From: Candidatus Micrarchaeota archaeon | GTDB taxonomy: Archaea; Micrarchaeota; Micrarchaeia; Anstonellales; Bilamarchaeaceae | DNA length: 64,000 nucleotides | Assembly: GCA_040753215.1 (NCBI GenBank) | Contig: JBFMEZ010000025.1 | Span: forward strand, 5,528-69,527 | Reading direction: 5' to 3' | Shown: piece after piece, positions 4,080 to 33,274 of the stretch | Layout of the letters: every line of letters begins with the position of its first letter | Position numbering within the stretch: position 1 is the stretch's first letter | The notes under the pieces: generated by a model | Seen by the model: only the letters and a program-made list of their open reading frames with translations | What the model was told of the DNA's origin: nothing | Databases searched by the model: none | Position numbers and translations under genes: made by a program

Positions 4080-4929
4080 GAAGGAGGGCGGCGACCAGGG
4101 CCGCCGGTACGATGTCCGCCTCTGCCACAACGCCGCATATGAAACGCAGGTCGGCGTTATTTTTCTGGGATTCGAGAAGGTAGTAGAGCCCGAAGAGCGA
4201 CGTGGCTGCGGACATGAATACGAATGCGTAGGGCAGCGCCCCGTAGGCCCAGGAAACCAATGCCAGAATGAATGTGCCTGCATTTATCATATTGAGCAGG
4301 AGGAGAGCGCTGCCCGCGCCTATTGCAACGGGTATGGTTGGTATCCCCAGCCTCGCATCGCCTTCGACATCCCGCATGTCGAATACGGCGCTCACTAGGA
4401 AGAGGCGTGCGGCTATGAAGACGAACACTATCCATGCGGCGGGAGACAGCGGTGCGCCTGCATATAAAACGGGGATGAGGGCGAATGCCGCGTACATTAC
4501 GCCAACGCAGATGTTCTTCCCTACAAAAAGCTCCTTGAGCCTTGTGAAGCCGAGGAAACCGGGCAGGACGGGAAAGCTGTATAGCATGCTCGCGATGAAA
4601 TTCGCGGAGAGCAGGAGGAAGGCGGGCAGGCTTGCAGCTGCGAAATATGCGAGCGAGGCGAGCAGGCCGAGGAGCGAGAAAACGAGGACGAGGCCGCCGT
4701 TCCTGACGACAAATTCCGTGCGCTCCGGGTTGTTTATGCGGTCTATGTCCCTGTCCACCGCCCTGTTGAGCGCGTATATCGCAAGGGATTCGAAGAATAC
4801 CGCAAAGGCAACCGCCGGCTCAAGCGAAAGGCCGAGCACCGCTGCGGAAATGACCGGTACCGCAACCGCTATCAGCGAGGCGTAGATGTCAGTTACTACC
4901 AGTAGGTGCAGGAATTTGCCAAGGCGCAT
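4069..4929 (-). CDS. UbiA-family prenyltransferase, probably digeranylgeranylglyceryl phosphate synthase (archaeal lipid synthesis)
   Basis: Polytopic membrane protein with the Asp-rich NRAVDRDIDRIN motif and a second DMRDVEGD motif typical of UbiA/DGGGPS enzymes. Its 3' end overlaps the KaiC-like gene by 11 nt, convergently. Confidence 0.7.
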   Translation of the reverse strand: MRLGKFLHLLVVTDIYASLIAVAVPVISAAVLGLSLEPAVAFAVFFESLAIYALNRAVDRDIDRINNPERTEFVVRNGGLVLVFSLLGLLASLAYFAAASLPAFLLLSANFIASMLYSFPVLPGFLGFTRLKELFVGKNICVGVMYAAFALIPVLYAGAPLSPAAWIVFVFIAARLFLVSAVFDMRDVEGDARLGIPTIPVAIGAGSALLLLNMINAGTFILALVSWAYGALPYAFVFMSAATSLFGLYYLLESQKNNADLRFICGVVAEADIVPAALVAALLLIH

Positions 4930-6438: not shown

Positions 6439-6516
6439 CAGGCCAAAAGCACCACGGAACCTGATTTTGCAGACGTAGCAACTGGAAACCCGAAACTGGG
6501 AACGAAATCAATGATT

Positions 6517-6588
6517 TGGGCCCGAAGGGAATCGAACCCCTGGTCTCTACCATGTCAGGGTAGCGTCTTGCCATTCGACTACGGGCCC
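6517..6588 (-). tRNA. tRNA-Val (anticodon GAC)
   Basis: Reverse complement reads GGGCCCGTAGTCGAATGGCAAGACGCTACC-CTGACAT-GGTAGAGACCAGGGGTTCGATTCCCTTCGGGCCC-A. It has a 7-bp acceptor stem, the GG D-loop, anticodon loop CUGACAU with U33 and A37, and a GGTTCGATTCC T-loop. CCA is not encoded. Confidence 0.9.
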
Positions 6589-6799
6589 AGAACAATTGCC
6601 GGTTTAGAGTTTTCAGTTTCCGGATAACGTGTTGACAAATAAAGGCGCATAAGTCCTTAAAAAGGATAGCACACCCCCGTGCGTGCGTAAGGAGTGCGAG
6701 CGAAGAGTTGCGAAGCGAAGTGGAAAGGGGGTATGATTACCCTAAAGAGAGGGGGGAACGCCTTCCCCCTTCCTCTTGGTGCCATTCGACTACGGGCCC
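6569..6799. repeat. 20-bp direct repeat (TGCCATTCGACTACGGGCCC) at 6569-6588 and 6780-6799, which is nt 1-20 of tRNA-Val; the copies bound a 192-bp segment
   Basis: Exact 20/20 identity. The second copy lies just outside the tRNA, 192 bp from the gene's 5' end. This is the pattern of an att-site duplication or a mini-element insertion. Confidence 0.7.
6727..6784 (+). repeat. conserved ~58-nt element, copy 1 (hairpin GGGGGAACGCCTTCCCCC plus CTAAAGAGA TATA-like box), ending in TGCCA
   Basis: About 85% identical to 33219-33274. Both copies sit in divergent intergenic regions directly beside tRNA sequence. Confidence 0.6.
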
Positions 6800-6830: not shown

Positions 6831-7628
6831 ATGATTATAAAGAATCGTTCTGAAAGGAAGCGCATGAAAAAATCATCGCGCGTTCCCGCATCGGCAAGGC
6901 GGGCAGAACCGAAACCGGAAACCGGAAGCTGGAAACTGGAAGCCGGCGGCCGCACGCCCACCGGGATATCCGGGCTGGATGATTTGCTTGAGGGAGGGTT
7001 CCCGGAAGGGAGCTTCGTCCTTCTCTCGGGAACGTGCGGCACGGGCAAGTCCATCTTCGGGATGCAGTTCGTTTGCCGGGGCGCGGAGAGGGGCGAGCCG
7101 GGAGTGTTCCTCTCCATGGAGGAGGAGCCGGAGAGGATCATTAAGGACATGTCCGGCTTCGACTGGGATATAAGGAAGCAGGTGGACGAGGGGCGGCTGG
7201 CGATAGCCAAGCCGGAGATTTACGAGAGCGACGCGATAAAGAGGATGATAGTGGATTCCGTGGAAAGGACCGGCGCGAGGAGGCTGGTGATAGACTCCTT
7301 CACGCTGCTCAGCTCCTACCTGGAGAATCCCTTCGACATAAGGAAGATGATTTTCGACATAAGCAGGGAGATAAAGAAGCTGAACTGCACCACCCTCTCC
7401 ATCTCGGACATGCCGGAGGGCGGCGCATCCTACTCCATAAACGGGTTCGAGGAGTTCGTCTCCGACGGCGTGGTCGTGCTGTCCCTTGCGCAGGCGGGCA
7501 CGACCGGGGCGTACACGCGCGCGCTGCTCGTGAGGAAGATGAGGGCGACGTCGCATTCGCTGAAGATGGTTCCGTTCAAGATTGAGAGGGAGGGAATAAA
7601 GCTCTACCCCGAGGCGGAGCTTTTCTGA
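6831..7628 (+). CDS. KaiC-like / RadA-RecA superfamily ATPase, second paralogue
   Basis: GISGLDDLLEGGFPEGS...SGTCGTGKS Walker A and an LVIDSFT Walker-B-like block. The N-terminal ~40 aa contain a heptamer-repeat stretch (KPETGSWKLEAGG), so the true start may lie downstream or use a non-ATG codon. Confidence 0.75.
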   Translation: MIIKNRSERKRMKKSSRVPASARRAEPKPETGSWKLEAGGRTPTGISGLDDLLEGGFPEGSFVLLSGTCGTGKSIFGMQFVCRGAERGEPGVFLSMEEEPERIIKDMSGFDWDIRKQVDEGRLAIAKPEIYESDAIKRMIVDSVERTGARRLVIDSFTLLSSYLENPFDIRKMIFDISREIKKLNCTTLSISDMPEGGASYSINGFEEFVSDGVVVLSLAQAGTTGAYTRALLVRKMRATSHSLKMVPFKIEREGIKLYPEAELF

Positions 7629-7634
7629 CGGCGG

Positions 7635-8048
7635 TCAGCCGGCCGGCCTTGGCTGTGCGTGCAGCATCCGGAGAATCTCCTCCCGGGATATCTCCTGCCT
7701 GTGCCTCTGCTCCGCCTGGAGCTTCCTGAAAAAGTAGAAATACTCGTAAAGGCTGCCCTCGTCCTCCGCCCATATAACCCTATGGCTGTCCATCACCTCC
7801 CATTTGAGATAGAGGGGGAGCTCTTCGAAGCAGTAAACGTCGTAGCCCTTTCCGTATACATCCACATTGTGGTATACTCTTTTCATAATGCCCGCGCTTT
7901 TCTTCCCTGGAGCGACTATGCAGATGTCTACATCCCTCGCTCCGGCTTCGCCCTTTGCTGCGGAGCCGAAGAGGAGGACCGCAAGCGCGTCCTTTTTCAG
8001 GAATGAGAACTCTTTCCTGAGCGCCCGCATCATTTTTTCCCCAGCCAT
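7635..8048 (-). CDS. minimal nucleotidyltransferase (MNT/MntA-type antitoxin of a HEPN-MNT pair)
   Basis: LFGSAAKGEAGARDVDI is the GS-x9-13-DxD Pol-beta nucleotidyltransferase motif. The protein is small (137 aa) and overlaps the HEPN gene by 19 nt. Confidence 0.75.
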   Translation of the reverse strand: MAGEKMMRALRKEFSFLKKDALAVLLFGSAAKGEAGARDVDICIVAPGKKSAGIMKRVYHNVDVYGKGYDVYCFEELPLYLKWEVMDSHRVIWAEDEGSLYEYFYFFRKLQAEQRHRQEISREEILRMLHAQPRPAG

Positions 8049-10890: not shown

Positions 10891-11724
10891 ATGGAAGCGC
10901 ACAAGGCTCTCGCGAAAGCCGGGATTGCCGTCCTTCTGCTCATCCCTCTCTGGCATATGCTTGTGGCTGAGGAATTGTACAAAACCGGGGAGGATTTCTA
11001 TTTCTATGCGGAGGGGTTCGGGGAAAGGGAATACCTCGCGCCCGGGGCGAATGAAACCAGGGAGATGCAGGTTATAACCATCATCACCAAGAGGATTGTG
11101 GAGAGCCGCGGGGACGAAGCCAGAATGGCTTTTGAAGTGGAAAGCAGGGAGCTGGCAACCGGGGCCCCCATATTTCACGCAAGCGAGGTGCTGGATTACA
11201 ACAGGCGCACATTTTCATTCACAAAGGACGGGAGCGCTTACAACTGGTTCCCGAGAAACGTGGAGAAGAGGGCGTATGAGGACGTCTACTACTCCTCCGC
11301 CCTGCCTGTGGCGGACTACGAATTCGAAGGGGTGGAAGAAGTGGAGGGGCTGGAGGCGTATGTGTTCGGGTTTGAGGGGAGGATGGATGCCTCGGGGAAA
11401 TACCCGGACTATCCCGATGCGCGCATAACCAGGGATATGGAGGGCAGGATATGGGTGGAGCCCAGAACGGGCAGTGTGGTGGACGTGGAAGTGGAATGGG
11501 TTGCGTATATGGATGCTGAAGGCGGCCCCGTGGTGATAGACAGGGGAGGCACAGGGTACTCGGATGACACGGCTGCCATGCTCGCGGAGGAGGCTTCGGG
11601 CAGGAAAAACCACATGCGGTTTGCGCTCATATGGATGCCGCTGCTTTTCGTGTTTGCCGCAATAGCGGCGTTTGCAGCATCCTGGCTTGCTAAACCAGGG
11701 AGGGAAGGATATGGAAGCAGGTAA
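10891..11724 (+). CDS. N- and C-terminally membrane-anchored protein, paralogue B
   Basis: Same architecture as 10063-10890 (N-terminal TM, EEL/YxxxE-rich domain, C-terminal TM), directly abutting it. Tandem paralogues. Confidence 0.55.
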   Translation: MEAHKALAKAGIAVLLLIPLWHMLVAEELYKTGEDFYFYAEGFGEREYLAPGANETREMQVITIITKRIVESRGDEARMAFEVESRELATGAPIFHASEVLDYNRRTFSFTKDGSAYNWFPRNVEKRAYEDVYYSSALPVADYEFEGVEEVEGLEAYVFGFEGRMDASGKYPDYPDARITRDMEGRIWVEPRTGSVVDVEVEWVAYMDAEGGPVVIDRGGTGYSDDTAAMLAEEASGRKNHMRFALIWMPLLFVFAAIAAFAASWLAKPGREGYGSR

Positions 11725-12478: not shown

Positions 12479-13015
12479 TTACTGCACAACCCCGTTAAGC
12501 GTGCCCGCCTCTATATATGAGAAGCCGGTTACACGGTCCGTGTAATTTATCCTCATTACGACCTGGAAGGACGTGCCTGCGCCGGTCGTGTAGTTGAACG
12601 CGCCCACCGGGATGGTGTCGGATATCTCGCCCACGCCGAGCGAGATGTTGAGGTCTCCGGAGTCTATCATGTCGCCCGCGTATGTAGCGTTTATGGAATT
12701 CACGGAGATTGGTACTCCCACCTGGTTCTGGAGCTTCACCGAAAGGTCGCCGCCCGAATTAAGGATGAAGGCGGGGACCGCGACCTGCGTGAAAGCGACC
12801 GGCCTGTTGCCGATGAAGGAGCCGATGTCGAATATTCCCAGCACGAAAAGGGCAGCGGCTACAAGAAGAACAATGAGGAGCGCCCATCCGTATGTAATGA
12901 GGAAATCCAGGGCGGCTTGGCCCCTTCGGTTTCGGGTTTCCTGTTTTCCGTTTCCCGCTTCCGGAAACCGGGGGCCGGCAACTGGAAACCGGCTTGCAGC
13001 CTGGCCTTTTTTCAT
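12479..13015 (-). CDS. archaeal type IV pilin-like protein (class III signal peptide, DUF361-type), paralogue 1
   Basis: MKKGQAAS...RRG|QAALDFLITYGWALLIVLLVAAALFVLGIF is a prepilin-peptidase site (K/R-G|Q-x-x-x-D/E) followed by a hydrophobic helix. The leader carries an in-frame heptamer-repeat insertion (RFPVAGPRFPEAGNGKQETRN). The ATG at 13015 is preferred over the tracked 13171. Confidence 0.7.
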   Translation of the reverse strand: MKKGQAASRFPVAGPRFPEAGNGKQETRNRRGQAALDFLITYGWALLIVLLVAAALFVLGIFDIGSFIGNRPVAFTQVAVPAFILNSGGDLSVKLQNQVGVPISVNSINATYAGDMIDSGDLNISLGVGEISDTIPVGAFNYTTGAGTSFQVVMRINYTDRVTGFSYIEAGTLNGVVQ

Positions 13016-13234
13016 TTTTTTCACCGGGTGAATAATGATAATACGGATTATAAAAGTTAGCACGAGCCGTAGGAGCATCCCTGTATCTGGTCGTACGCGC
13101 ACACGTAGCCGGTGTCGGGCCCGCAGTGGTCGTAGGTGCATGGGTCGCCGTCGTCGCAGGATGGCGGGCACACGCAGCCGAGCAGCAGGAGCGCGAGGAA
13201 GAGCAGCAGGAATGCGGCGCGTATTTTCTCCATC

Positions 13235-13723
13235 TCAGCTCACCTCCCCGAAAACCGTTCCCTTCGAAGCATAAGCAAACCCGGTTGCGCGGTCTTCGTA
13301 CCCTATCTTTATCGCGATTGCATAGCGCATGTCCGGGCTGATGCCGGTGAGGTTTCCCACCGGGATTATGTTCGATACTTCGCCAATGCCCAGCCGTGTA
13401 TTTGTGCACCAGGCGGTTATGGTCTGGTTCTGGTACGTTGCATTTATGTAGTTTATCCTTATCGGCCTTCCCGCATCGTTCCTGAGCTTCAGGAGAAGCA
13501 GGCCAGAGGGCGAAACCCTGAAAGCCGGGACTGAGACCTCGCTAAACCCTGCCGCCCTGTTGCCTATGAACGAGCCGACGTCAAGTATGCCCAGGGAAAA
13601 GAGGGATGCGCCTATGAGGATGAGCAGCACAACCGCCCATCCGTAGGTCATCAGGAAATCAAGCGCCTGGCCTTTATGGTTTCCTGTTTCCGGTCTTCGG
13701 TTTCCGGAATGCATTACGGACAT
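13235..13723 (-). CDS. archaeal type IV pilin-like protein, paralogue 2
   Basis: MSVMHSGNRRPETGNHKG|QALDFLMTYGWAVVLLILIGASLF is a class III signal. Leader codons are made of GGAAACC-type repeats. The mature domain is similar to paralogues 1 and 3 (IGNRxxGF, SVPAF, INATY). Confidence 0.7.
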   Translation of the reverse strand: MSVMHSGNRRPETGNHKGQALDFLMTYGWAVVLLILIGASLFSLGILDVGSFIGNRAAGFSEVSVPAFRVSPSGLLLLKLRNDAGRPIRINYINATYQNQTITAWCTNTRLGIGEVSNIIPVGNLTGISPDMRYAIAIKIGYEDRATGFAYASKGTVFGEVS

Positions 13724-13765
13724 TGAGAAGATAAAGGAAGAAAAGAAAAATAAAGGAATTGCTTG

Positions 13766-14272
13766 CTATTCCACGATTCCGTTCAGCGTCCCGGTCTCCA
13801 CGTAAGTGAAGCTCGTTGTGCGGTCGGTGTAGCCAACCCTCATAGTAACCACGTAGGAGTCGCCGCTGCTCAGCCCGGTGAACGCGCCCACGTTTATGGT
13901 GCTGGAGGTCCGCCCGATGCCAAGGTTCGTGGAAGGCGCGACGCTCACCGTCTGGTTGGTGTAGGTCGCGTTTATGGAATCTATCCTTATCGGGTTCCCG
14001 ACCTGGTTCTGGAGCTGCAGCGTTAGCGTCCCGTTTGACGCGATTTTGAACGCCGGGACCGCCACCTGCGTGAAACCCACTGCCCTGTTCCCTACGAAGG
14101 AGCCGATGTCGAATATCCCGAGCACGAAGAGTGCCGCTGCAATCAGGACAATCAGCAGTATGGCCCATCCGTAGGTCATCAGGAAATCCAAAGCCGCCTG
14201 GCCCTTCCTGTTTCCTGTTTCGGGTTTCCGGTTCCCGGAAACCTCTCTCTCTTGGCTTTTTCCCGAATACAT
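13766..14272 (-). CDS. archaeal type IV pilin-like protein, paralogue 3
   Basis: MYSGKSQEREVSGNRKPETGNRKG|QAALDFLMTYGWAILLIVLIAAALFVLGIF. Same family as the two downstream genes. N-x-S/T sequons are present. Confidence 0.7.
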   Translation of the reverse strand: MYSGKSQEREVSGNRKPETGNRKGQAALDFLMTYGWAILLIVLIAAALFVLGIFDIGSFVGNRAVGFTQVAVPAFKIASNGTLTLQLQNQVGNPIRIDSINATYTNQTVSVAPSTNLGIGRTSSTINVGAFTGLSSGDSYVVTMRVGYTDRTTSFTYVETGTLNGIVE

Positions 14273-14354
14273 ACTGGTATCACCTTGGGGTGAATAGGTT
14301 AAAAAGTTTATAAAGCTTGCTCCAGAAGCCCTGTTCGGTGGGGTATTGAAGGTC

Positions 14355-14490
14355 TTGGGGTCTTGAATGGTCTACGGGTCCCGGGGGTCTTGAATGGTCT
14401 ACGGGTCCCGGGGGTCTTGAATGGTCTACGGGTCCCGGGGGTCTTGAATGGTCTACGGGTCCCGGGGGTCTTGAATGGTCTACGGGAGCT
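14355..14490. repeat. tandem repeat, 27-bp unit (TCTTGAATGGTCTACGGGTCCCGGGGG) x5
   Basis: Five head-to-tail copies at 14361, 14388, 14415, 14442 and 14469 with no spacers, so not CRISPR-like. Located in the divergent region between the pilin paralogues and the adhesin gene. Confidence 0.85.
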
Positions 14491-14531
14491 GAAGACTATG
14501 CAAGACACGGAGACTACCGGTTGGTGATGAG

Positions 14532-14909
14532 TTGGTCCAAAATCCAAAGAACCTGCGTGTCTACGGGCAGGCATTCATGCTGTCCGCTGATGTTTACAAC
14601 CGTTTCCGGGATATCAAAACAAGTCTCAGGCTCAAGGACCAGCTTTTCGGGTCTGTGTCTTCTGTCTGCGCAAACCTGGCCGAGATGGGCGCCTTTGAGA
14701 GCAAGACGCAGCAGAAGCAGAAACTCATAACCTGCGTGGGGGAATGTAACGAAGCTGAGTATTGGTTTGATTTGTGCAGGGAGGTCGGCTTGCTTGGGGA
14801 GAAGGAGCATGGGGAATTCACCGGCAAGCTCAGGAAGGTACGGGTAATGCTCTTCAACCTGCTTGGCTCGGTAAAAGAGGACATCGGAAAAGAGGGTAGG
14901 AAGGCATGA
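14532..14909 (+). CDS. four-helix-bundle protein (23S rRNA intervening-sequence protein family, TIGR02436-like)
   Basis: CANLAEM...ESKTQQ...LEEL-type helical pattern (VSSVCANLAEMGAFESKTQQKQKLITCVGECNEAEYWFDLCREVGLL) characteristic of this small protein family. Confidence 0.55.
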   Translation: MVQNPKNLRVYGQAFMLSADVYNRFRDIKTSLRLKDQLFGSVSSVCANLAEMGAFESKTQQKQKLITCVGECNEAEYWFDLCREVGLLGEKEHGEFTGKLRKVRVMLFNLLGSVKEDIGKEGRKA

Positions 14910-14962
14910 GAAGAAAAATGCAGAAACAAGACGTGAAGGCACCCAAGACCAGAAGACCACCG

Positions 14963-15150
14963 CAAGACCTGGAGACCACGGTTGTGCGGTCTCGGAGTCC
15001 TGGAGTCTCGAGAGTCTTGAGAAACGTGGGGACTACGCAAGACCCCCAAGACCTGGAGACCACGGTTGTGCGGTCTCGGAGTCCTGGAGTCTCGAGAGTC
15101 TTGAGAAACGTGGGGACTACGCAAGACCCCCAAGACCTGGAGACAGCCTC
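14963..15150. repeat. tandem repeat, 84-bp unit x2.2, directly upstream of and in frame with the adhesin start
   Basis: Copies at 14963-15046, 15047-15130 and a partial 15131-15150. Translates as PQDLETTVVRSRSPGVSRVLRNVGTTQD. Shares GCAAGAC/GGTCT motifs with the 27-bp array and with the 5' end of the pilin gene at 18230. Confidence 0.85.
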
Positions 15151-15160
15151 AAGACCGTGC

Positions 15161-17218
15161 ATGAAAGGACAGGCGAGCCTTGAGAATTTGATAATGCTCG
15201 GCATAGGGCTCGCGGTCGCGACAGTATTCTTCTATTTTGCGCTCACGATGCTGGACGACAGCATAGCCGCTTCGCAGGCGAAGGACGCGGTGAACAGGAT
15301 TGCGCAGGAGGCGGATTACGTATACGCGCTCGCGCCAGGGACGACGAGGTATGTGGATTTCACAATCCCGCGCGGGACGGAGCTGATTGAGATAAGCGGG
15401 AGGAGGGTGCACATGCAGGTGCAGCTCTCCAGCGGGCTGACTGATTTCTATGCGAACACGCAGGCTGAGCTTGTGGGGGCAATTGACCTGAACCCCGGGC
15501 CCGCGAGGGTGGTGGTGAAGCATACCGAATCGGGAAACGTGCTGGTTGGGAACAAGGAGCTTTCCCTTTCCCCGGAAGTGCTTGAATTCTACCTCCAGAG
15601 GGGGCAGGGCGACAGCGGTCAGATAAACGTAACGAATGGGGGGGAGAGGAACCTTACCGGGATTGCTGCGTACGTGCTCGGGGACATACTGGACATGGTG
15701 ACGATAACCCAGCCCTCTGCGACGCTTGCGCCCGGGCAGAACTCGAGCATTTCTGTTTCTGTCCTTATTCCTGCTGCGAAGCCTTTCGGAACCTATTACG
15801 GGAGCGTGTATGCAAACTCAACGGAAGGGAGCTGGGACGAGACTGCGGTAAAGATTGTGGTGAGCGGGGGGGCGGCTGTTTCATGCGCGCTCTCCCCGGC
15901 CGTTGCGAACGTTTCGATAGGGTTCACGCAGGATTTCACGAGCACGTGCTATGATTCCGGGAGCTACGAGACAACGTGCCAGAACCTGAACTGGTATTCA
16001 GATGCGGGGGACATGATTCCATCCACTTCTCCTACGGGAAGCACTCTCTATGTGAATACGTATGGGACCCTGGTTAATGCGACCTCAGGCTCTTTCACTT
16101 GCAGCGCTTCGCTGAATTATCCGGATGCGAACGGGCCTCTTGTGGCCAATCTTACCTACTATCCACCTTCTCCGCTCAATGCAACCGCGAACATAACCGT
16201 GAATGCTACGGGCGACGATAGCACCACCGGCGGCTCCACCATAAAGATGTGCAGGGTGAACGTGGACTCGGGAACATGGATGAACATGGATGCCGTGGAC
16301 GGGAGCTATGACGAGGTTGTGGAGCCGGTCACAAAAAATATAGGGAATTATTCCTCGGGAAACCATACGATATACGTGCAGTGCCAGGATTACTACAACA
16401 ACTGGGGGCCGGTTTCGAGCACCACGTTCTTCGTTACGGATACTTCGGGCCCGAGCGTGAGCAACATATTCATAGACCCTGCGGGGGTGTGCAACCTGGA
16501 GACCGCAACCGTGTATGCGACCGCGACGGATACGGGTGGGATAGTGAGCATGTGCCAGTTCAGGCTGGATGCGGGCGGATGGAGCAACATGGAGGCGGAT
16601 GATGGGGCGTATGATGAGCAGACGGAACTGGTGAGATACTACCAGACCTCCGGCTTCACTGCGGGGAACCATACATTGTGGGTGAGGTGCACGGACCAGT
16701 ACAACAATACAGGAACCCCTGCAAGCCAGGTGGTGGCCATTCCCACATGCAACCCCGAGCTTTTCATGAACCCCGGATTCGACACCTATACCGGCTCGGT
16801 GAACAATGCGAACTGGCAGTTCTGGAACGAGGACAGGTTTAGCGGAGGGATTCTCGCCCCGGACGATGGGAGGACGATATTCGGGACATCGGTGCTTATG
16901 GCAAATGCGCAGATATGGCAGGGAGTTAGCATCAGCGGGTCTACGAATTATACGATGAGGGTGTGGGTGAAGAGCAGCAGGCCGCTCTCGGTGCCGATGA
17001 AATGGGGGGCGAGGGACAACAGCGGAAGGTGGCTGCAGCCTGGCGGAGGATGGGCAACGAGCACGTATTATTTCACGCAATATGTGAGTTCCTCATGGAC
17101 GCAGTTCAGCACCACGTTCGTAACGAGGGCGGGGGCGAACGCGGTCAGGATATACTACAGGATGGACACGCCTCCGGGGTACATATGGATAGATGATGCA
17201 AGCCTGAGGCGGACTTAG
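15161..17218 (+). CDS. large pilin-like surface adhesin: class III signal peptide, repeated beta-sandwich (CARDB/Ig-like) domains and a C-terminal carbohydrate-binding-module-like domain
   Basis: MKG|QASLENLIMLGIGLAVATVFFYFAL is a textbook DUF361-type prepilin signal at ATG 15161. The tracked ORF starts at 14906 and runs through the 84-bp repeats without a stop, so a long leader is possible. It is Thr/Ser/Asn-rich with many N-x-S/T sequons. The C-terminal GFDTY...NWQFW...YTMRVWVKS...YYRMDTPPGYIWIDD resembles CBM_4_9. Confidence 0.7.
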   Translation: MKGQASLENLIMLGIGLAVATVFFYFALTMLDDSIAASQAKDAVNRIAQEADYVYALAPGTTRYVDFTIPRGTELIEISGRRVHMQVQLSSGLTDFYANTQAELVGAIDLNPGPARVVVKHTESGNVLVGNKELSLSPEVLEFYLQRGQGDSGQINVTNGGERNLTGIAAYVLGDILDMVTITQPSATLAPGQNSSISVSVLIPAAKPFGTYYGSVYANSTEGSWDETAVKIVVSGGAAVSCALSPAVANVSIGFTQDFTSTCYDSGSYETTCQNLNWYSDAGDMIPSTSPTGSTLYVNTYGTLVNATSGSFTCSASLNYPDANGPLVANLTYYPPSPLNATANITVNATGDDSTTGGSTIKMCRVNVDSGTWMNMDAVDGSYDEVVEPVTKNIGNYSSGNHTIYVQCQDYYNNWGPVSSTTFFVTDTSGPSVSNIFIDPAGVCNLETATVYATATDTGGIVSMCQFRLDAGGWSNMEADDGAYDEQTELVRYYQTSGFTAGNHTLWVRCTDQYNNTGTPASQVVAIPTCNPELFMNPGFDTYTGSVNNANWQFWNEDRFSGGILAPDDGRTIFGTSVLMANAQIWQGVSISGSTNYTMRVWVKSSRPLSVPMKWGARDNSGRWLQPGGGWATSTYYFTQYVSSSWTQFSTTFVTRAGANAVRIYYRMDTPPGYIWIDDASLRRT

Positions 17219-17677
17219 ATGGTTTTCAGTTCCCAGTTGCCAGTTTTCGGAAGCCGGAAAGCGCAGGCAAGTATTGAGTTTACAATAATGGCCTTCTTTT
17301 CGCTCATGCTCCTGCTGGCGGCAACATTCATCTACTCCTGGCAGAGCGCGGAGATTGCGGAGGCGCGCACTTTCTCGGAGATGCGCTCCATCTGCTCCTC
17401 GCTCTCCGCGCGGGTCTCCGGGCTTGTGATGGCTGGAAGCGGGGCGAGTGTGAAGCTGGATTACCCCGAGAAATTGTATGGGGACAACTATTCAATATGG
17501 GTGCAGGGAAACGAGAGCATAGTGAAGGTCATAAGGACGGACGCGCTTGGGGAGGTTTCATCGGTCGGGTGCTACCTGAAAACGAGGGGGGTTTCGAACG
17601 GGACTTCGTATGCATTTTTCGCCGGGGCGAACGATACGCTGAGGAATGATGAAGGGGTAGTTGTATTCGGGAGGTAG
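17219..17677 (+). CDS. archaeal type IV pilin-like protein (class III signal), paralogue 4
   Basis: MVFSSQLPVFGSRKA|QASIEFTIMAFFSLMLLLAATFIY. The leader codons are heptamer repeats. Starts one nt after the adhesin stop (TAGATG). Confidence 0.65.
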   Translation: MVFSSQLPVFGSRKAQASIEFTIMAFFSLMLLLAATFIYSWQSAEIAEARTFSEMRSICSSLSARVSGLVMAGSGASVKLDYPEKLYGDNYSIWVQGNESIVKVIRTDALGEVSSVGCYLKTRGVSNGTSYAFFAGANDTLRNDEGVVVFGR

Positions 17678-17682
17678 GGAGA

Positions 17683-18243
17683 GTGCTGGGCACTGGAAAC
17701 CGGAAACGGGAAACTGGAAACAGGAAAGGTTACGCGACGGGCGTGGACTTCGTGCTCTCAATACTCATATTCTCGATAGTGCTTGCATACTCCATTGGCT
17801 CGTATTACTACTATCTTGGGGAATACCGGGCGGTGGAAGCGAGGAAGAACCTTGAGGTTTCGGCGCTTGCGCTTACGGACACGCTGCTCAAAAGCCCGGG
17901 GATTCCGGGAGACTGGGAGGCGGCCGCGGATTGGGAGGAATGGATGGAGGAAGAGGAGGAGGAAGAGGAGTGGATTCCCACGGGCCTGGAATCCATAGGG
18001 CTTGTGCGGAGGGCGAATGTGCTCGAGCCGGCGAAGGTCTTCGCGCTGGATATGATGGACTATAATTATTCCAGGGAAGTGCTTGGGATTGGGGCGGATT
18101 ATTTCCTCTACATAACAACCGTGGGCGGGATTACAGTGATGGAGAAGGGGGTGCGGATGGAGAACGCGAGCGTCATCTCGGTGAGGAGGATGGCGCTGTA
18201 CAACGGGACGTACGCATGGGTGACTTTGGATGTTTATGGATAA
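17683..18243 (+). CDS. pilin-like protein (class III-type signal), paralogue 5
   Basis: GTG start preceded by GGAGGT 7 nt upstream. MLGTGNRKRETGNRKG|YATGVDFVLSILIFSIVLAY. The leader is repeat-encoded and an acidic EEEEEEE stretch follows. Confidence 0.55.
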   Translation: MLGTGNRKRETGNRKGYATGVDFVLSILIFSIVLAYSIGSYYYYLGEYRAVEARKNLEVSALALTDTLLKSPGIPGDWEAAADWEEWMEEEEEEEEWIPTGLESIGLVRRANVLEPAKVFALDMMDYNYSREVLGIGADYFLYITTVGGITVMEKGVRMENASVISVRRMALYNGTYAWVTLDVYG

Positions 18244-18295
18244 GGATCGTCTTGGAGTCTTGAGTAGTCTCCATGTCTCCCGAGACTTGAGGACC

Positions 18296-18757
18296 ATGCA
18301 AGACACGAAGACCCCAAAGACGCGGGGACTAAACAGGAAAGGGCAGGTATTCACCATCGATGCCCTTCTCTCGGTCACGGTCCTCCTGCTTTTCATCTCC
18401 GCACTTGTTGGATTTTCGGTGAGCGGGAGGTTTGTGCGCAGCAGCATGCACGATGAGAAGCTCGCAGAGGACGTGCTCGTGGTTCTGGACGAGAACGGGC
18501 TGCTCACAAGGAACGCCACCTACCTCAATGCGACGCTTTACAACATCCTGGACGGGACCAGGCACTACGGGGTGGAAACCAGCGACTACGAATACCACGG
18601 GGGCAGTTTCGTCCTGGTGGGGAACGGGAGCGCGGGGGAGGTGCCGGCGGAATTTGATGAAGTGAGCGTGAGCGAGAGGAGCGCGGCAAGCTACGAGCCG
18701 GGGAAGGGGCCGCAGTTCGCGAACTTAACTATTGTGAGGCTGTATATATGGAGATGA
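18296..18757 (+). CDS. archaeal type IV pilin-like protein, paralogue 6
   Basis: MQDTKTPKTRGLNRKG|QVFTIDALLSVTVLLLFISALVGF. The ORF track extends to 18230 through sequence related to the 84-bp repeat, so the start is uncertain. Confidence 0.6.
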   Translation: MQDTKTPKTRGLNRKGQVFTIDALLSVTVLLLFISALVGFSVSGRFVRSSMHDEKLAEDVLVVLDENGLLTRNATYLNATLYNILDGTRHYGVETSDYEYHGGSFVLVGNGSAGEVPAEFDEVSVSERSAASYEPGKGPQFANLTIVRLYIWR

Positions 18758-19599
18758 GGGGGAAGCAGGGGCAGGCAGGCCGAAACCGGAAAGGTTTTAC
18801 CGCCACGCTTTCCACGCTGCTGCTCCTCTCATCGGTTGTGCTGCTGCTCATGCTCATACTGCAGGTGGAAGGGAGGGCGGATAAGGAGAACCTGGACATC
18901 GCGCGGCTCGGGATAATAAACAGCATAGATACGAACATAGGCGGGATGGCCCGGGAGGTGTACTCGCAGTCGGGATTCGTGATTGCGGGCGCGGGCGGGG
19001 AGGTGAACATAAGCGAGGACCGCTCCGCGTCCGGGAAGCTCTCGCAGAACCTGGGGGCGCTTGAGGCGTGGTGGGATGCAAGCAGGAGTGCGAACATAAC
19101 CCTGGAAATACCCAACGATGCGAAGACGCCGCTCTTCTGGATTATGCCGCAGAACATAAGCGTGGAGATAAAGCCGGGGAAGACAACGGTGCTGCCCCAG
19201 GATGCTCCGGAGAGCGCCGGGCAGGTAGAGGCGTATTCCGTTTATGAGATAACAACCTGCGCAAACCTCTCCGCGCAGTGGAACAACCTCTCGCTCGGGA
19301 GCGGGCCGGGCGCGGTGAATTTCACCATCAATTTCACGTGCAGCAATTACACCTACAACGATTTCAGGCAGCTCAATAAGTATGGGTACAGCGAGCTCGT
19401 GCTGCAGGAGAATGCGTTCACCCCCCTGCTCACGGTGAGGGTTTACTCGCCCGCGAAGATGGAGCTGGAGAAAAACAAGCCCCCCACTTATTTAAATTTG
19501 GCGGTAGAGGTGAATGGCAGCGCGAGGGTTGAGATGCCGGGTGTGCTGAACATAAGCATCGGAGAGGCGAGAAGGGACGGGAGGGTGGTGGTAGGGTAG
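18748..19599 (+). CDS. pilin-like protein (class III-type signal), paralogue 7, 283 aa
   Basis: MEMRGKQGQAGRNRKG|FTATLSTLLLLSSVVLLLMLIL, with an N-glycosylation-sequon-rich extracellular domain. Confidence 0.55.
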   Translation: MEMRGKQGQAGRNRKGFTATLSTLLLLSSVVLLLMLILQVEGRADKENLDIARLGIINSIDTNIGGMAREVYSQSGFVIAGAGGEVNISEDRSASGKLSQNLGALEAWWDASRSANITLEIPNDAKTPLFWIMPQNISVEIKPGKTTVLPQDAPESAGQVEAYSVYEITTCANLSAQWNNLSLGSGPGAVNFTINFTCSNYTYNDFRQLNKYGYSELVLQENAFTPLLTVRVYSPAKMELEKNKPPTYLNLAVEVNGSARVEMPGVLNISIGEARRDGRVVVG

Positions 19600-19650
19600 A
19601 TGTTTCCGGTTCCCTGTTTCGGGTTTCCGGAAACTGGCAACGGGGAACTG
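19600..19650. repeat. inverted heptamer-repeat array (GTTTCCN)n...(GGAAACN)n forming a potential hairpin
   Basis: GTTTCCGGTTCCCTGTTTCGGGTTTCCGGAAACTGGCAACGGGGAACTG, between the pilin 7 stop and the CBS gene start. Confidence 0.7.
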
Positions 19651-19652
19651 AC

Positions 19653-20303
19653 ATGAACGGGGAAATGAAGGTAAGGGACATCATGCGGAAGGACTTCATA
19701 TACCTTGATGAGGAGGAGAAGCTGGACGCGATAATAGAGAAGTTCGCAAAATACGGCATCCACGAGGCGCCGGTGCTGAGCAGGGGGGAGCTGAGGGGGC
19801 TCGTGTCCGACAGGGAGATTGCGGATGCCCTCCTGAAAAAGAGGGCGCTTCCTTTCCTGAGGGGCAGGGAGCTGCTTTCCGCGGAAAAGGCGAAAAACAT
19901 AAGGGCACGGGACATACTGAACAGGCATTTCCTCACGCTCGAGCCAGGCATGGAGCTCGTGGATGCGATAATAGACATGGCGCGCAGGGAGACGAACGTT
20001 ATCCCGGTAGTGGAGGGCGGGAGGGTGCTGGGGATAGTGACCGGGAAGGACGTGGTGGGCTACGTGGCGAAGAAATTCATAAGCCACGAGGCGGAGGAGA
20101 AGGGCGGCGAGGGGCTGCAATCCGCGGTGGATGCGGTGCTTGCGCTCGTGAAGGAGAGGAAGAAGGTCTCTGCTGAGGAGGCCTCGAAAAAGCTCGGGAT
20201 TTCCAGGGAAAGGGTTGAGGCGATAGCGAAATCCCTCGCAAAGCACGGGCTCGTCGAGGTGAGGTATACGATAGGCGGAAGGATGGAAGTGAGGGGGATC
20301 TGA
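19653..20303 (+). CDS. CBS-domain pair protein with C-terminal winged-helix-like domain
   Basis: Two CBS repeats (VRDIMRKDFIYLDEE..., ARDILNRHFLTLEPG... with GIVTGKDV) and a C-terminal KLGISRERVEAIAKSLAKHGLV HTH-like segment. Confidence 0.65.
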   Translation: MNGEMKVRDIMRKDFIYLDEEEKLDAIIEKFAKYGIHEAPVLSRGELRGLVSDREIADALLKKRALPFLRGRELLSAEKAKNIRARDILNRHFLTLEPGMELVDAIIDMARRETNVIPVVEGGRVLGIVTGKDVVGYVAKKFISHEAEEKGGEGLQSAVDAVLALVKERKKVSAEEASKKLGISRERVEAIAKSLAKHGLVEVRYTIGGRMEVRGI

Positions 20304-21775
20304 TGGCCCAGCTGGAGGAATATGCGGTAAGGAGCGAGGAGATGGAGGGGAAGGTCACGGTGGCGCGCGGGCCGGAGGATTACGTGCCCAGGTACAGCCT
20401 GCAGGTGCAGAAGCTCTCCGGGCCTACGGCCGCATACCTGGAAGACGTCAAGAACGAGCTGCTCAAGAGGATTACAATAGGGACGAGGGAGCTTACCGAG
20501 CTCAGCGCGCTCGAGGCGCTGAAGGCGGAGATAAAGAGGAATGCGGTGAAGCTGCTCAAAAGCGGCCTTCCGGGGGAGAGCGAGGATGATTACGCCTTCT
20601 TCGCATCGAAGATAGTGCAGGACATGGTGGGGCTGGGGGACCTGGAGTTCCTCATAGCTGACGACTGGCTGGAAGAGATATGCGTAAACAGGGCAGGGGA
20701 GCCGGTCTGGGTGTACCACAGGAAATACGGATGGCTGAAGAGCAACGTCATAATACCGGACGAGGCGCAGGTGAGGAACTACGCGGCCGCGATAGGGAGG
20801 AAGGTGGGCAGGCAGATAACGATACAGGACCCGCTGCTCGATGCGAACATGGTCACGGGGGACAGGGTGAACGCGACGCTCTCGCCGGTGTCCATGCTGG
20901 GGAACACCATCACAATAAGGAAATTCGCGAGGAAGCCATGGACGATTACGGACATGCTGAAGCTGAACACCCTTTCCTACGAATCCGCGGCCTTCCTCTG
21001 GCTGTGCATGGAATACGAAATCAACATCCTGGTGGGGGGCGGGACCGGAAGCGGGAAGACCTCCTTCCTCAACGTGCTCACCGCGTTCATGCCCGCGAGC
21101 CACAGGCTGGTCAGCATAGAGCAGACGCACGAGATAAAGCCGCCGAAGCACCTCCAGTGGGTGCCGATGGTGGTGAGGGAGCCGACGAGCGAGGGGAAGG
21201 GGGAGGTCTCCATGCTGGACCTCATGATAAATGCGCTCAGGATGAGGCCGGACCGCATAATAGTGGGCGAGGTGAGGAGGGCGGACGAGGCGGAGGTGCT
21301 CTTCGAGGCGATGCACACCGGCCACAGCGTGTATTCCACGCTGCACGCGGAGACCGCGAGGGAGACCCTGAAGAGGCTCACGCACCCCCCGATAGACATC
21401 CCTCCGGTTGTGCTCGGCTCGCTGCAGCTGATAGCGGTCATGTACAGGGACAGGAGGGCGAACGTGAGGAGGTTGTTTGAGGTGGTGGAGCTCCTGCCGA
21501 GCGAGGAGAGGGAGCCGATGAGCAGGACGCTCTTCAGGTGGAAGCCGCTGAAGGACCAGGTGTTCAGGGAGGAGGCGAGCGTGCGCGTGCTGGAGACGCT
21601 GAAAACCTTCACAAGGATGGACGAGAAGGAGATAGGGAGGAGCATAGCGGAGAAGGAGGAGATGCTCAGGTGGATGGTGAAGAAGGACGTAAACGCGGTG
21701 GACGCTGTCGGGAAGCTCGTGGCGGATTACTACATGGAGCCGGAAGCCGTGCTTGCAAAGGTGAGGAAGAAATAG
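20303..21775 (+). CDS. type IV pilus / type II secretion family assembly ATPase (archaeal PilB/FlaI/ArlI-like, VirB11 superfamily)
   Basis: ILVGGGTGSGKTSFLN Walker A, RIIVGEVR Walker-B region and a His box (MHTGHSVYSTLHA). 490 aa with the N-terminal domain typical of FlaI-like ATPases. TGATG overlap with the CBS gene. Confidence 0.85.
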   Translation: MAQLEEYAVRSEEMEGKVTVARGPEDYVPRYSLQVQKLSGPTAAYLEDVKNELLKRITIGTRELTELSALEALKAEIKRNAVKLLKSGLPGESEDDYAFFASKIVQDMVGLGDLEFLIADDWLEEICVNRAGEPVWVYHRKYGWLKSNVIIPDEAQVRNYAAAIGRKVGRQITIQDPLLDANMVTGDRVNATLSPVSMLGNTITIRKFARKPWTITDMLKLNTLSYESAAFLWLCMEYEINILVGGGTGSGKTSFLNVLTAFMPASHRLVSIEQTHEIKPPKHLQWVPMVVREPTSEGKGEVSMLDLMINALRMRPDRIIVGEVRRADEAEVLFEAMHTGHSVYSTLHAETARETLKRLTHPPIDIPPVVLGSLQLIAVMYRDRRANVRRLFEVVELLPSEEREPMSRTLFRWKPLKDQVFREEASVRVLETLKTFTRMDEKEIGRSIAEKEEMLRWMVKKDVNAVDAVGKLVADYYMEPEAVLAKVRKK

Positions 21776-21782
21776 GTGTCGT

Positions 21783-22667
21783 ATGGGCGCGAGGATTCCG
21801 TTCTTTGTCCCGGAAAAGGCCTCCTACCCGCTGGGGAGGCTGTTCGCGGGGGTTGTGCAGCCCTTCACGAGGCTGATGCCCGAGCTCGGGGAGAGCCTTC
21901 CGGTGCTGGGGATAGAGCACGACGAGGCGGAGTATACCGGGGCTGCGCTGGTGAACGCGCTGTTCGCGGGGGTTGTGCTCGGCGCCGCATTCTACATGGT
22001 CGCGGTGAGGGTGGGCGCCGCGGAGAGCATACGCGTGCACGGGAGCCTGATCACGGGGCTTGCAATCTTCCTCATGAGCCTCGCATACCTCCTCGCGTTC
22101 CCGGTGTGGGTGGTGAGGAGGAGGGCGGACGAGATAGAGGAGAACCTCCTGTATGCGGTGAGGCACATCATGGTGCAGACGACCGCGGGGGTGCCCTTCT
22201 TCGAGGCGCTCTCCTCGGCCGCGTCCGGGTACGGCCCGGTTTCGGCGGAATTCAGGAACATCGTCAACCAGGTGAACGGCGGGAAGGACCTGGCGGATGC
22301 GCTTGAGGAGAGCGCGGCGAAGAGCGCCTCCAAATATTACAAGAGGATACTGTGGCACGTGGCGAATTCAACGAGGTCCGGATATAACATAGCGGACATA
22401 ATGAAGGAGCTGGTGACCTACCTCGCATACGAGCAGCAGATAAGGGTGAAGAAATTCGGCTCCGAGCTCAACGTGATGTCCCTGTTCTACCTCTCCACCT
22501 GCGTGATACTGCCCACGATGGGGCTGATACTGGCCGTGATACTTTCCTCTTTCGCGGTCGTTTCGCTCAGCCCCACGCTGCTCGGGGTTTTTGTATTCGT
22601 GATAGCCATATTCAACCTGATGTTCCTGGGGATGGTGCAGTCGAGGAGGCCGAGGGGGCTCATATGA
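21783..22667 (+). CDS. TadC/FlaJ-like pilus assembly membrane protein (T2SS-F domain), first of two
   Basis: Polytopic membrane protein with a cytoplasmic helical domain, directly after the ATPase. This is the PilC/TadC/FlaJ platform architecture. Confidence 0.65.
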   Translation: MGARIPFFVPEKASYPLGRLFAGVVQPFTRLMPELGESLPVLGIEHDEAEYTGAALVNALFAGVVLGAAFYMVAVRVGAAESIRVHGSLITGLAIFLMSLAYLLAFPVWVVRRRADEIEENLLYAVRHIMVQTTAGVPFFEALSSAASGYGPVSAEFRNIVNQVNGGKDLADALEESAAKSASKYYKRILWHVANSTRSGYNIADIMKELVTYLAYEQQIRVKKFGSELNVMSLFYLSTCVILPTMGLILAVILSSFAVVSLSPTLLGVFVFVIAIFNLMFLGMVQSRRPRGLI

Positions 22668-23620
22668 ATCCTGTTAAAAGCTATGTGAATTACATACGGC
22701 AACTCCTGGCGTACTGCGACATCTCCGCATCGCCCAACAAGTTCGCCCTCTTCACGCTATGGTTCCCCTTCCTGACCGCGCTCATAATCTCGGTTTTCTT
22801 CCTCAGGGAGCAGGGGCACATCCTCTTCGCGGTGGGCGCCGCCGCATTCGTGGCGGCGGAGGCTGGGATATTCGGGTTCCTCATCCTCGCAAAGAACAGG
22901 AGGGCCGAGGCGGCGGAGGAGGCGATGCCGGACTTCCTGCTGCTCGCTTCAAACAACATAAGGAGCGGGATGACCCCGGACAGGGCGCTGATAGCATCGG
23001 CGAAGGACGAGTTCGGGGTGCTGAGCAGGGAAGTCATGCGGGTGATGCGGGAGACGGTCTCCGGAAGGCCTTTTGAGGAGATGCTGATGAAGGTCACCGA
23101 GAGGATAGATTCGCGGACTATTGAGAACACCGTGAGGCTCGTTGTCGAGGGGATGTATTCGGGCGGGGAGCTCCCCTCTCTCCTTGAAAGGACCTCCTAC
23201 GACATAAGGACGATGAAGACGCTCAGGAAGGACGTGCAGGCGCTCATAGTCACGTACCAGATGTTCATAGCGTCCGCCGTGATGTTCGGGGCGCCTATCC
23301 TCTTCGCGGTGGCAACGCACATAGTTGAGATAATGATCGCGCTGAGGGCAAAGATAACAATAAGCGGGCTTGCCGTGGCGGGGGGGCTGATACCGCTCGG
23401 CAGCGCGGCCGGAGTGAGCGCCGACACGCTCATGCTGTTTGCGGTGAGCGCGATATTCGTGAACTCCCTCTTCGCATCGGTTGCGATAGGGCTCATTTCA
23501 AAGGGAAGGAAGGTGGAGGGGCTGGGCTATTTCCCGCTCGTGTTCCTGGTCTCGCTGGCGTTCTTCTTCCTTGTGAGGCTCGTGCTCAAGAGCGCCCTCG
23601 GCGGCGTCCTGCCTGTATAA
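22664..23620 (+). CDS. TadC/FlaJ-like pilus assembly membrane protein (T2SS-F domain), second of two
   Basis: ATGA overlap with the previous gene and a similar TM/cytoplasmic pattern. Together the two genes resemble a split FlaJ. Confidence 0.65.
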   Translation: MNPVKSYVNYIRQLLAYCDISASPNKFALFTLWFPFLTALIISVFFLREQGHILFAVGAAAFVAAEAGIFGFLILAKNRRAEAAEEAMPDFLLLASNNIRSGMTPDRALIASAKDEFGVLSREVMRVMRETVSGRPFEEMLMKVTERIDSRTIENTVRLVVEGMYSGGELPSLLERTSYDIRTMKTLRKDVQALIVTYQMFIASAVMFGAPILFAVATHIVEIMIALRAKITISGLAVAGGLIPLGSAAGVSADTLMLFAVSAIFVNSLFASVAIGLISKGRKVEGLGYFPLVFLVSLAFFFLVRLVLKSALGGVLPV

Positions 23621-33218: not shown

Positions 33219-33274
33219 GGGGGGTTATGATTACGCTAAAGAGAAGGGGGAACTCCCCCTTCTTCTTGCTGCCA
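33219..33274 (+). repeat. conserved ~58-nt element, copy 2, ending in GCCA, which forms the first four nt of the downstream tRNA
   Basis: GGGGGGTTATGATTACGCTAAAGAGAAGGGGGAACTCCCCCTTCTTCTTGCTGCCA. CTAAAGAGAA lies at -35 to -26 relative to the tRNA 5' end, like a TATA box. The hairpin is AAGGGGG-AAC-TCCCCCTT. Confidence 0.6.

Follow-up and report, generated by a model that had tools for sequence, protein, structure and literature searches.

In-frame GGAAACN repeat arrays in the prepilin leaders of a Micrarchaeota pilus locus

How does a set of paralogous prepilin genes come to encode long leaders from tandem repeat DNA, and do those repeats serve any purpose where they lie? The question is raised by a pilus locus that we read from one 64-kb window (the whole stretch of DNA analyzed here) of a metagenome-assembled genome (MAG) of Micrarchaeota, a group of DPANN archaea, in which short arrays of the heptamer GGAAACN were found in the leaders of six out of eight pilin genes (at least 2 units, 1 mismatch per unit allowed). 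The answer that we consider probable is that these arrays are near-neutral passenger repeats, tolerated because the prepilin leader is cleaved off and kept in frame by selection.

Leader length was taken from the conserved start codon to the K/R-G cleavage motif. In seven of the eight genes leaders were 15–38 amino acids (aa) long, a wider span than the 16–33 aa reported in a first-pass annotation of this DNA; the leader of the eighth, a large pilin-like gene that we call “big,” was 3 aa. The same annotation had described the leaders as consisting almost entirely of heptamer codons; heptamer arrays lie in those of pilins 1–3 and of the minor pilins m1, m2, and m4, with the array of m1 reversed. 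The leaders of m3 and “big” carry no heptamer and were shaped instead by a second repeat family and a large insertion. The genes, their leaders and the arrays within them (cleavage sites marked by arrows) are as follows.

12479–13015, minus strand: pilin 1, identical to GenBank MEW5996774.1 and to P0009; RRG↓QAALDF, then a hydrophobic helix.
12920–13015, minus strand: pilin 1 leader, 32 codons, MKKGQAASRFPVAGPRFPEAGNGKQETRNRRG↓QAALDF.
12928–12990: palindromic array of the pilin 1 leader, with 5 forward units at 12928–12962 on the coding (minus) strand and reverse units at 12977–12990.
13235–13723, minus strand: pilin 2, leader MSVMHSGNRRPETGNHKG↓QALDF.
13670–13723, minus strand: pilin 2 leader, 18 codons, with an array at 13678–13691 and degenerate units.
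13766–14272, minus strand: pilin 3, 168 aa, identical to MEW5996777.1; leader at 14201–14272, 24 codons, MYSGKSQEREVSGNRKPETGNRKG↓QAALDF.
14209–14236, minus strand: array of 4 units in the pilin 3 leader.
15161–17218, plus strand: “big,” pilin-like protein of 685 aa, MKG↓QASLENL from the ATG at 15161.
17219–17677, plus strand: minor pilin m1, leader at 17219–17263, 15 codons.
17683–18243, plus strand: minor pilin m2, leader at 17683–17730, 16 codons, with a 5-unit array at 17695–17729.
18230–18757, plus strand: minor pilin m3, leader at 18230–18343, 38 codons, with an AGACC/GGTCT insert at about 18246–18320.
18748–19599, plus strand: minor pilin m4, leader at 18748–18795, 16 codons, with 2 heptamer units at 18781–18794.

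The seventh base of the unit varies in almost every copy, and the leader tracts are short (2–5 units) and imperfect. Whatever the seventh base, GGAAACN holds no stop codon in any of the six frames, and three units make seven codons, read forward as G-N-R-K-P-E-T. Of the seven arrays in window leaders, six have GGAAAC on the coding strand, which yields peptides rich in K/R with N-R-K-G at their end. The pilin 1 array encodes RFPVAG...PEAGNGKQETRNR. In m1 a reverse-orientation array (17221–17248), which encodes VFSSQLPVF, is followed by 2 forward units (17249–17262), and in pilin 3 a single reverse unit ahead of the array creates the center GGTTTCC-GGGAACC.

These peptides would exist only on paper if the arrays lay in 5′ untranslated regions (UTRs), with the true starts past the arrays and short leaders. 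Two genes fit such an arrangement, since “big” has an ATG directly before its cleavage site (MKG↓Q) and the m3 leader would be 16 aa long if begun at an internal ATG. In the six array-bearing leaders (pilins 1–3, m1, m2, and m4), however, no ATG, GTG, or TTG follows the array ahead of the cleavage site, and if the pilins are made, translation must therefore run through the arrays; the first-pass annotation had named starts past the arrays as fatal to its proposal, and no canonical one is available there. Correctly spaced Shine-Dalgarno sequences (SDs) and first codons are moreover kept upstream of the arrays in three genomes, and all insertions are stop-free multiples of 3, a regularity that a UTR would not need. 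We regard an untranslated location as extremely improbable. At the individual genes, the ATG of pilin 1 at 13015 is preceded by a TATA box and the SD GGTGA (the NCBI Prokaryotic Genome Annotation Pipeline, PGAP, starts MEW5996774.1 at a GTG 3 codons further upstream), and the pilin 3 array by the TATA box TTTATAAA, the SD GGTGAT at correct spacing, and ATG-TAT. The m1 start lies directly behind the stop of “big,” m2 starts with GTG behind the SD GGAGGT, and m3 has the SD GGTGAC and an ATG overlapping the m2 stop, an arrangement kept in all three genomes. The PGAP annotation has the same long N-termini.

The two other genomes are syntenic relatives, L080 (a 17.8-kb JGI contig) and L001 (21 kb). 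DNA of the L080 locus is about 80–84% identical to the window, with arrays at partly different places; L001 has the same operon and zero arrays in its 21 kb. Promoter, SD, and first codons are common to all three, and the stretch from there to the K/R-G motif varies by 6–96 nt, as the orthologous leaders make plain.

Pilin 1: 32 aa in the window, 16 aa in L080, no orthologue in L001.
Pilin 3: 24 aa (MYSGKSQEREVSGNRKPETGNRKG↓Q) in the window, 6 aa (MYARKG↓Q) in L080, 6 aa (MYSRKG↓Q) in L001.
m1: 15 aa in the window, 17 aa in L080, 22–47 aa in L001.
m3: 38 aa in the window, 15 aa in L080, 9 aa in L001.
m4: 16 aa in the window, 39 aa with a 4-unit array in L080, 7 aa in L001.

Pilin 3 of the window differs from both relatives by a single 54-nt in-frame insertion after the conserved TATA box, SD, and ATG-TAT, which bears out the earlier suggestion that the arrays are insertions, specific to this lineage, in short leaders that already existed. 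The m2 genes of the window and L080 differ by a single clean gap of 21 nt, or 3 units; these make 7 codons, and no smaller change in an array would preserve frame. Minor pilin m4 of the window has a 27-nt insertion relative to L001. Arrays also occur in the L080 orthologues of pilin 2 (P0013, MHSRNRKPGTGNRKG↓Q) and of “big” (a 24-aa leader with a 3-unit heptamer array). Across the window and L080, the conserved start was in frame with the mature part in 15 of the 15 genes that retain that start position, and the six independent indels were all multiples of 3, for which the chance is about 0.001. The mature part of pilin 3 shares 91% protein identity with its L080 orthologue P0001; to judge by such sequence comparisons, the mature pilin parts are under constraint.

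Long leaders are unusual within the wider family. Among 143 pilin N-termini from 158 loci, for each of which the shortest possible leader was taken, 134 (94%) had leaders of 3–9 aa, and the two longest, 24 and 32 aa, both came from the window. Minor-pilin orthologues elsewhere have leaders of mostly 3–10 aa. A second metagenome scan, using pilin alignment A1, returned 77 loci, none closer than 69% identity and none with arrays, and exact-protein look-ups (ATPase, pilin 3, CBS protein, and P0009) gave no matching contigs.

The unit length is no multiple of 3, the repeats occupy the 5′ coding part of surface-filament genes, several of them paralogues, and unit number differs between the window and L080, all of which is what one would expect of contingency loci, in which gain or loss of one 7-nt unit in the leader would switch individual pilins on or off. 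The precedent is the CTCTT leader repeat of the Neisseria opa genes (PMC3960869), which likewise has a unit not divisible by 3 and lies in the leader-coding region of surface-protein paralogues. The opa tracts are perfect and switch frame at a high rate, whereas the tracts in the window are short (2–5 units) and imperfect, every copy is in frame at the conserved start position (all 15 window and L080 genes retaining it), and the single clean array indel between the two genomes compared is 21 nt, which keeps the frame. The same arrays also occur in a 2758-aa open reading frame (ORF) and a KaiC-like gene, where switching would be merely harmful. Phase variation of this kind seems to us very unlikely.

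The m2 orthologue of L080 (7270–7375, minus strand) has GCG in place of the window GTG and no canonical in-frame start upstream of the cleavage site; the cause may be decay to a pseudogene, an error of sequencing, or use of a non-canonical start. We considered this gene as a copy turned off by one heptamer and rejected this, as the alignment consists of a clean 21-nt gap plus the GTG-to-GCG point change. The JGI gene calls for m1 and m2 of L080 begin downstream of the cleavage site, so that the class III signal peptide is missed.

Are the eight proteins pilins at all? A scan for class III N-termini ([KR][GA], then an uncharged hydrophobic stretch, in ORFs of at least 80 aa) returned exactly eight in 64 kb, all within 12479–19599. 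Archaeal class III signal peptides have a charged residue at −2, G/A/S at −1, and then a hydrophobic H-domain of about 20 residues (PMC4371748), and all eight proteins have a charged residue at −2, G/A at −1, and an H-domain after it. The first-pass annotation had assigned a complete prepilin site to every pilin. The K/R-G/A motif with the hydrophobic stretch was present in 8 out of 8; the acidic residue (D/E) of the motif sits at +4 to +6 and is absent in m4. Pfam and NCBIfam models (PF04021, TIGR02537, and similar) gave no match to the window pilins at E ≤ 0.01, and the sub-threshold matches included PF04021 (Class III signal peptide) to m1 from residue 13 (E 0.17) and DUF7288 to m3 (E 0.026).

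Structure prediction was applied to pilin 3 alone among the eight. The AlphaFold2 model, built on 78 homologues, has a predicted local distance difference test (pLDDT) score of 90.4 and comprises a helix at residues 22–51 and a beta-sandwich of eight or nine strands, with low confidence in the leader. Its top Foldseek match was the type IV pilus subunit of Pyrobaculum calidifontis (8fk7_A, E 3.2e-4), followed by 6w8u_A and 8fj5_A, with further archaeal pilins and FlaF/FlaG lower in the list. Together with the gene context, the predicted fold of pilin 3 supports the view that the window proteins are pilins. The three small paralogues (pilins 1–3) lie on the minus strand, and a plus-strand operon comprises “big,” m1–m4, a CBS-wHTH regulator, a T2SSE ATPase, and two half-size platform proteins. 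Its downstream portion reads:

19653–23620, plus strand: pilus assembly genes (Pfam and NCBIfam).
19653–20303, plus strand: CBS-wHTH regulator (Pfam/NCBIfam).
20303–21775, plus strand: T2SSE/PilB-like ATPase (PF00437, E 2.7e-35).
21783–22667 and 22664–23620, plus strand: half-size platform proteins, UpsF/GspF/ArlJ-like (Pfam/NCBIfam).

The window pilins are in this way linked to a PilB/FlaI-type ATPase and a PilC/TadC/FlaJ-type platform, and the L080 gene table likewise has PF00437, as well as PF00482 twice. The nearest relatives of the window ATPase are in Candidatus Micrarchaeota/Micrarchaeia MAGs, the best being that of L001 at 77% identity. In their sequence and setting the pilins resemble the Epd-like “system 1” pilins of archaea, which share K/R at −2, G/A at −1, Gln at +1, and Asp/Glu near +5, a hydrophobic helix followed by a beta-sandwich, and a PilB-like ATPase with two platform genes; having two platform genes and Gln at +1 agrees with the “system 1/Epd-like” class known from methanogens and DPANN. 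Leaders apart, the window pilins are ordinary members of a Micrarchaeota pilin family, from which they differ in having leaders of 15–38 aa made of dispersed-repeat DNA, against 3–9 aa in 94% of the family.

The heptamer is not confined to pilin genes. The window holds 41 arrays with 2 units or more and 18 with 3 or more, distributed over both strands; 20 shuffled sequences yielded 0 of the latter size. Only 8 of the 41 lie in leaders, and the rest are intergenic or in places such as the N-terminus of the KaiC-like protein and the linkers of the 2758-aa ORF, and leaders, which had been proposed as a reservoir of the repeat, are not the main one. Predicted ORFs contain 27 of the 41. Leaders are nonetheless dense in arrays relative to their size: 4 of the 18 arrays with 3 units or more fall in about 486 nt of leader-coding DNA, against an expectation of about 0.14, and the array density there is about five times that of intergenic DNA. 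Most forward arrays have at least one reverse unit ahead of them, which creates a center TTTCC-GGAAA. Arrays outside the leaders include the following.

32–99: two 4-unit arrays that form an inverted pair around a 12-nt loop, located 58 nt past the 3′ end of a minus-strand ORF (157–1164).
6484–6504 and 6608–6621: arrays flanking a tRNA-Val gene (6516–6589) on both sides.
6831–7628: KaiC-like ATPase (PF06745, E 2e-61) with a 5-unit array at 6910–6944 in its N-terminal linker, between MKKSS and GLDxLL.
19601–19649: intergenic palindromic array of 4 reverse and 3 forward units, which fills the entire spacer between m4 and the CBS-wHTH gene.
34224–42500, minus strand: alanine-rich, apparently HEAT-like ORF of 2758 aa with at least 10 arrays in both orientations, in Pro/Ser/Gly-rich low-complexity linkers.

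At the KaiC-like linker L080 and L001 have unrelated, array-free sequence, and this array was therefore gained after the split from L080. At the junction of m4 and the CBS-wHTH gene, the L001 genes overlap at ATGA with no spacer, and the L080 genes are separated by 54 nt of similar array sequence. We examined 157 other DPANN loci, about 2 Mb in all, and arrays were absent from 155; four were found in the sister lineage L080, all four of these large arrays in pilin leaders, and one in L048. The peptides encoded by arrays in the 2758-aa ORF include SPVSSSRLPVP and PETGSGKPETD.

Several features of this distribution would suit sites in DNA or mRNA that control pilus expression in cis, bound for instance by the CBS-wHTH protein or an RNA-binding protein, with translation incidental. 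Roughly every second array has a start codon within about 130 nt, the palindromic center TTTCCGGAAA resembles a dimer-binding site, the position of the array at the m4–CBS junction is kept in the window and L080, and a regulator gene stands within the operon itself. Yet arrays of either orientation exist, and some sit at 3′ ends, next to a tRNA gene, or far within a giant ORF; among close relatives the number and position of units change quickly, and the L001 operon has no arrays. Folding gave the arrays in leaders no advantage over shuffled sequence (z +0.7 to −1.4), and only intergenic inverted pairs folded well: the m4–CBS array (19601–19649) forms a hairpin of −27.4 kcal/mol (z −1.8) and the inverted pair at 32–99 one of −30.9 kcal/mol (z −3.5), the latter of which may be terminator-like. 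No Rfam family matched the arrays, the scan of the window returning tRNAs only. A cis-regulatory role is unlikely in our judgment, and we found no evidence for the related proposal of the first-pass annotation that leader length tunes secretion or expression.

A third possibility is that long, positively charged leaders are adaptive in themselves, through cleavage timing, membrane targeting, or an altered peptidase, with the heptamer as raw material. The roughly 5-fold excess of arrays over intergenic DNA would accord with this, as would the K/R-rich peptides ending in N-R-K-G from six of the seven window leader arrays and the long non-repeat leaders of L001 m1 and a few distant homologues. 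Orthologous leader lengths diverge (24 vs. 6, 16 vs. 39, and 38 vs. 15 aa), however, which speaks against a preferred length; the m1 array is reversed and encodes uncharged residues, and 94% of family members function with leaders of 3–9 aa. We rate adaptive leaders as improbable. In the L001 m1 orthologue (7080–7637), which has no heptamer arrays, a GGGGAACCTGGGGACTGGG stretch resembles a degenerate relative of the repeat.

What remains, and what we favor, is that the arrays are passengers. This Micrarchaeota lineage would carry a dispersed family of short tandem GGAAACN arrays, often as inverted pairs meeting at TTTCC-GGAAA, that probably arise and change length at many sites by slippage or recombination. 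They would persist only where extra sequence, stop-free and for the most part hydrophilic, is tolerated, namely in intergenic spacers, disordered linkers, protein termini, and, above all, prepilin leaders, a cleaved leader being the most permissive coding location available; the arrays in the KaiC-like linker and the 2758-aa ORF fit persistence wherever tolerated. In leaders the arrays would be translated within the pre-pilin, adding a mostly positively charged extension to the n-region, to which the K/R-rich residues of forward arrays would be well suited. Since the terminal units GGAAACA-GGAAAGG spell N-R-K-G, an array could abut or replace the codons of the cleavage site and leave the site intact. 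The prepilin peptidase would then cut off the entire extension, leaving the mature pilin unchanged, while purifying selection would hold every array in frame. It is reasonable to infer that leaders are removed silently in this manner. Bacterial type IVb and Tad/Flp pilins have leaders of roughly 15–30 residues that are removed by prepilin peptidase, and long leaders are thus processable as such; theirs are conserved family features, whereas those in the window appear to be recent repeat insertions that vary between sister lineages.

Some observations sit less easily with passenger repeats. Production and cleavage of the long leaders are deduced from the DNA, and no A24 prepilin peptidase was found among the multi-transmembrane ORFs of the 64-kb window. 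The loss of the m2 start codon in L080 may mean that some of these genes are decaying. Tolerance alone may be insufficient to account for a density about five times higher in leaders than in intergenic DNA, and contributions may come from some form of targeting, from AGG-AAA-GG(N) cleavage codons acting as seeds, or from positive selection. The presence of identical heptamers at more than 40 separate sites is left unexplained.

Seeding and duplication at the cleavage site deserve separate mention. The first-pass annotation had pointed to a duplicated motif in pilin 1, where MKKGQAAS...RRGQAALDF contains the KGQAA codons twice, and the same pattern recurs in pilin 3 (MYSGKSQ...RKGQ), where a 13-nt target duplication (GGAAAAAGCCAAG ... 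AGGAAGGGCCAGG) is possible. Three distant Micrarchaeota pilins (P0057, P0107, and P0108) have the form M..KGQAAL, then 10–15 aa of non-heptamer insert, then (K/R)(G/A)↓QAALDF. These cases are suggestive, at the level of sequence, of insertions surviving where they duplicate the cleavage codons. Taken further, they would depict the arrays as an actively spreading, palindrome-centered “mobile microsatellite” that enters by preference the 5′ ends of genes, duplicates its target, and finds a safe harbor in the class III leader, the insert there being excised from the protein by the cell itself. Discrete elements with terminal inverted repeats and target-site duplications mark the MITEs (miniature transposable elements with inverted repeats); the window offers many palindromic centers and possible duplications in pilins 1 and 3, with no definable element length or boundary. 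We think active spread doubtful. Were it true, selfish DNA would have a new way to persist in archaea, perhaps one co-opted to vary the expression of pilins.

The two leaders lacking the heptamer have also been altered by inserted DNA. In “big,” the stretch that once encoded the leader is split by an insertion that neither L080 nor L001 has:

14341–15160, plus strand: insertion of about 820 bp.
14357–14486, plus strand: 4.8 perfect repeats of 27 bp (tandem-repeat search).
14532–14909, plus strand: ORF for a 23S_rRNA_IVP four-helix bundle (PF05635, E 3.6e-16).
14953–15144, plus strand: 2.3 repeats of 84 bp (tandem-repeat search).

The ancestral GTG start of “big” at 14338–14340, which is common to L080 and L001 and lies 22–28 nt past a shared TATA box, is now followed by a stop after 3 codons. 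The “big” ORF stays open for 85 codons upstream of the ATG at 15161, to an ATG at 14906 that overlaps the TGA of the IVP ORF (long version, 770 aa). AGACC/GGTCT motifs occur in the window only at about 14340–15150 and at 18246–18320, in the m3 leader. A simple copy of the 84-bp repeat was considered as the source of the m3 insert and rejected, only the motifs being in common. When the “big” protein was used to scan metagenomes, no relatives turned up.

Among known repeat DNA, the closest parallels are the heptameric simple sequence repeat (SSR) families GGGAATC of Xanthomonas, GGGGA(T/C)T of Nostoc, and STRR of Calothrix, which occur less often than expected within coding sequence (PMC4692102). 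Like the arrays described here, those SSRs form short tandem tracts of 7-base units (typically about four), dispersed over many loci of a single lineage, some as inverted pairs, and vary in length and sequence between close relatives. The window arrays depart from them in that about two thirds lie within ORFs (27 of 41) where the SSR families are mainly intergenic, in a unit that is not G-rich, in the archaeal host, and in their concentration in leaders. Rickettsia palindromic elements (RPEs) and other MITEs (PMC10969869) similarly place palindromic repeat DNA in frame in many unrelated genes; an RPE is a defined element, about 150 bp long, that has a conserved peptide, whereas the window has variable tandem 7-bp arrays for which target duplication is only suggested. 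A new molecular machine does not appear to be revealed: the repeat family and its in-frame survival are a variation on known heptameric SSR families and in-frame selfish repeats.

If the leader arrays are indeed passengers, the locus would be a natural example of selfish or slippage-prone repeat DNA accumulating in the part of a protein that is discarded after targeting, with cleaved leaders serving as mutational “buffer zones.” Lineage-specific heptameric SSR families of bacteria would gain a counterpart in DPANN archaea, one that reaches into coding DNA. In such genomes an expectation of short leaders will lead gene callers and FlaFind-type predictors to place starts wrongly or overlook pilins, and prepilin substrates with leaders of 15–38 aa could be used to probe the upper length limit of archaeal prepilin peptidases.

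Minor observations concern viral contigs and two further features of the window. Four perfect-core units were present in 13 of 2.9 million viral contigs, which share no protein homology with the window, and we found no evidence for a viral origin of the arrays. Two of these IMG/VR sequences (GC 62%; L167 at 7470–7518 and L160 at 4372–4420) have a 7-unit GGAAACY array right after an SD and ATG; it encodes METGNRKLETGNRKLETRKW before a transmembrane segment, and a second array, of CAGGTGY, lies just upstream. Another IMG/VR sequence, L169, has an inverted array pair immediately past a stop codon. Between pilins 1 and 2, a 58-aa ORF (13057–13233, minus strand) has a lipobox-like LLGC, a Cys-rich tail, and a weak Dicty_CTDC match, and is kept in L080 at 10982–11164. 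An Rfam tRNA match of 144 nt at 33271–33414 (44 bits), without an ARAGORN call, is probably an intron-containing archaeal tRNA.

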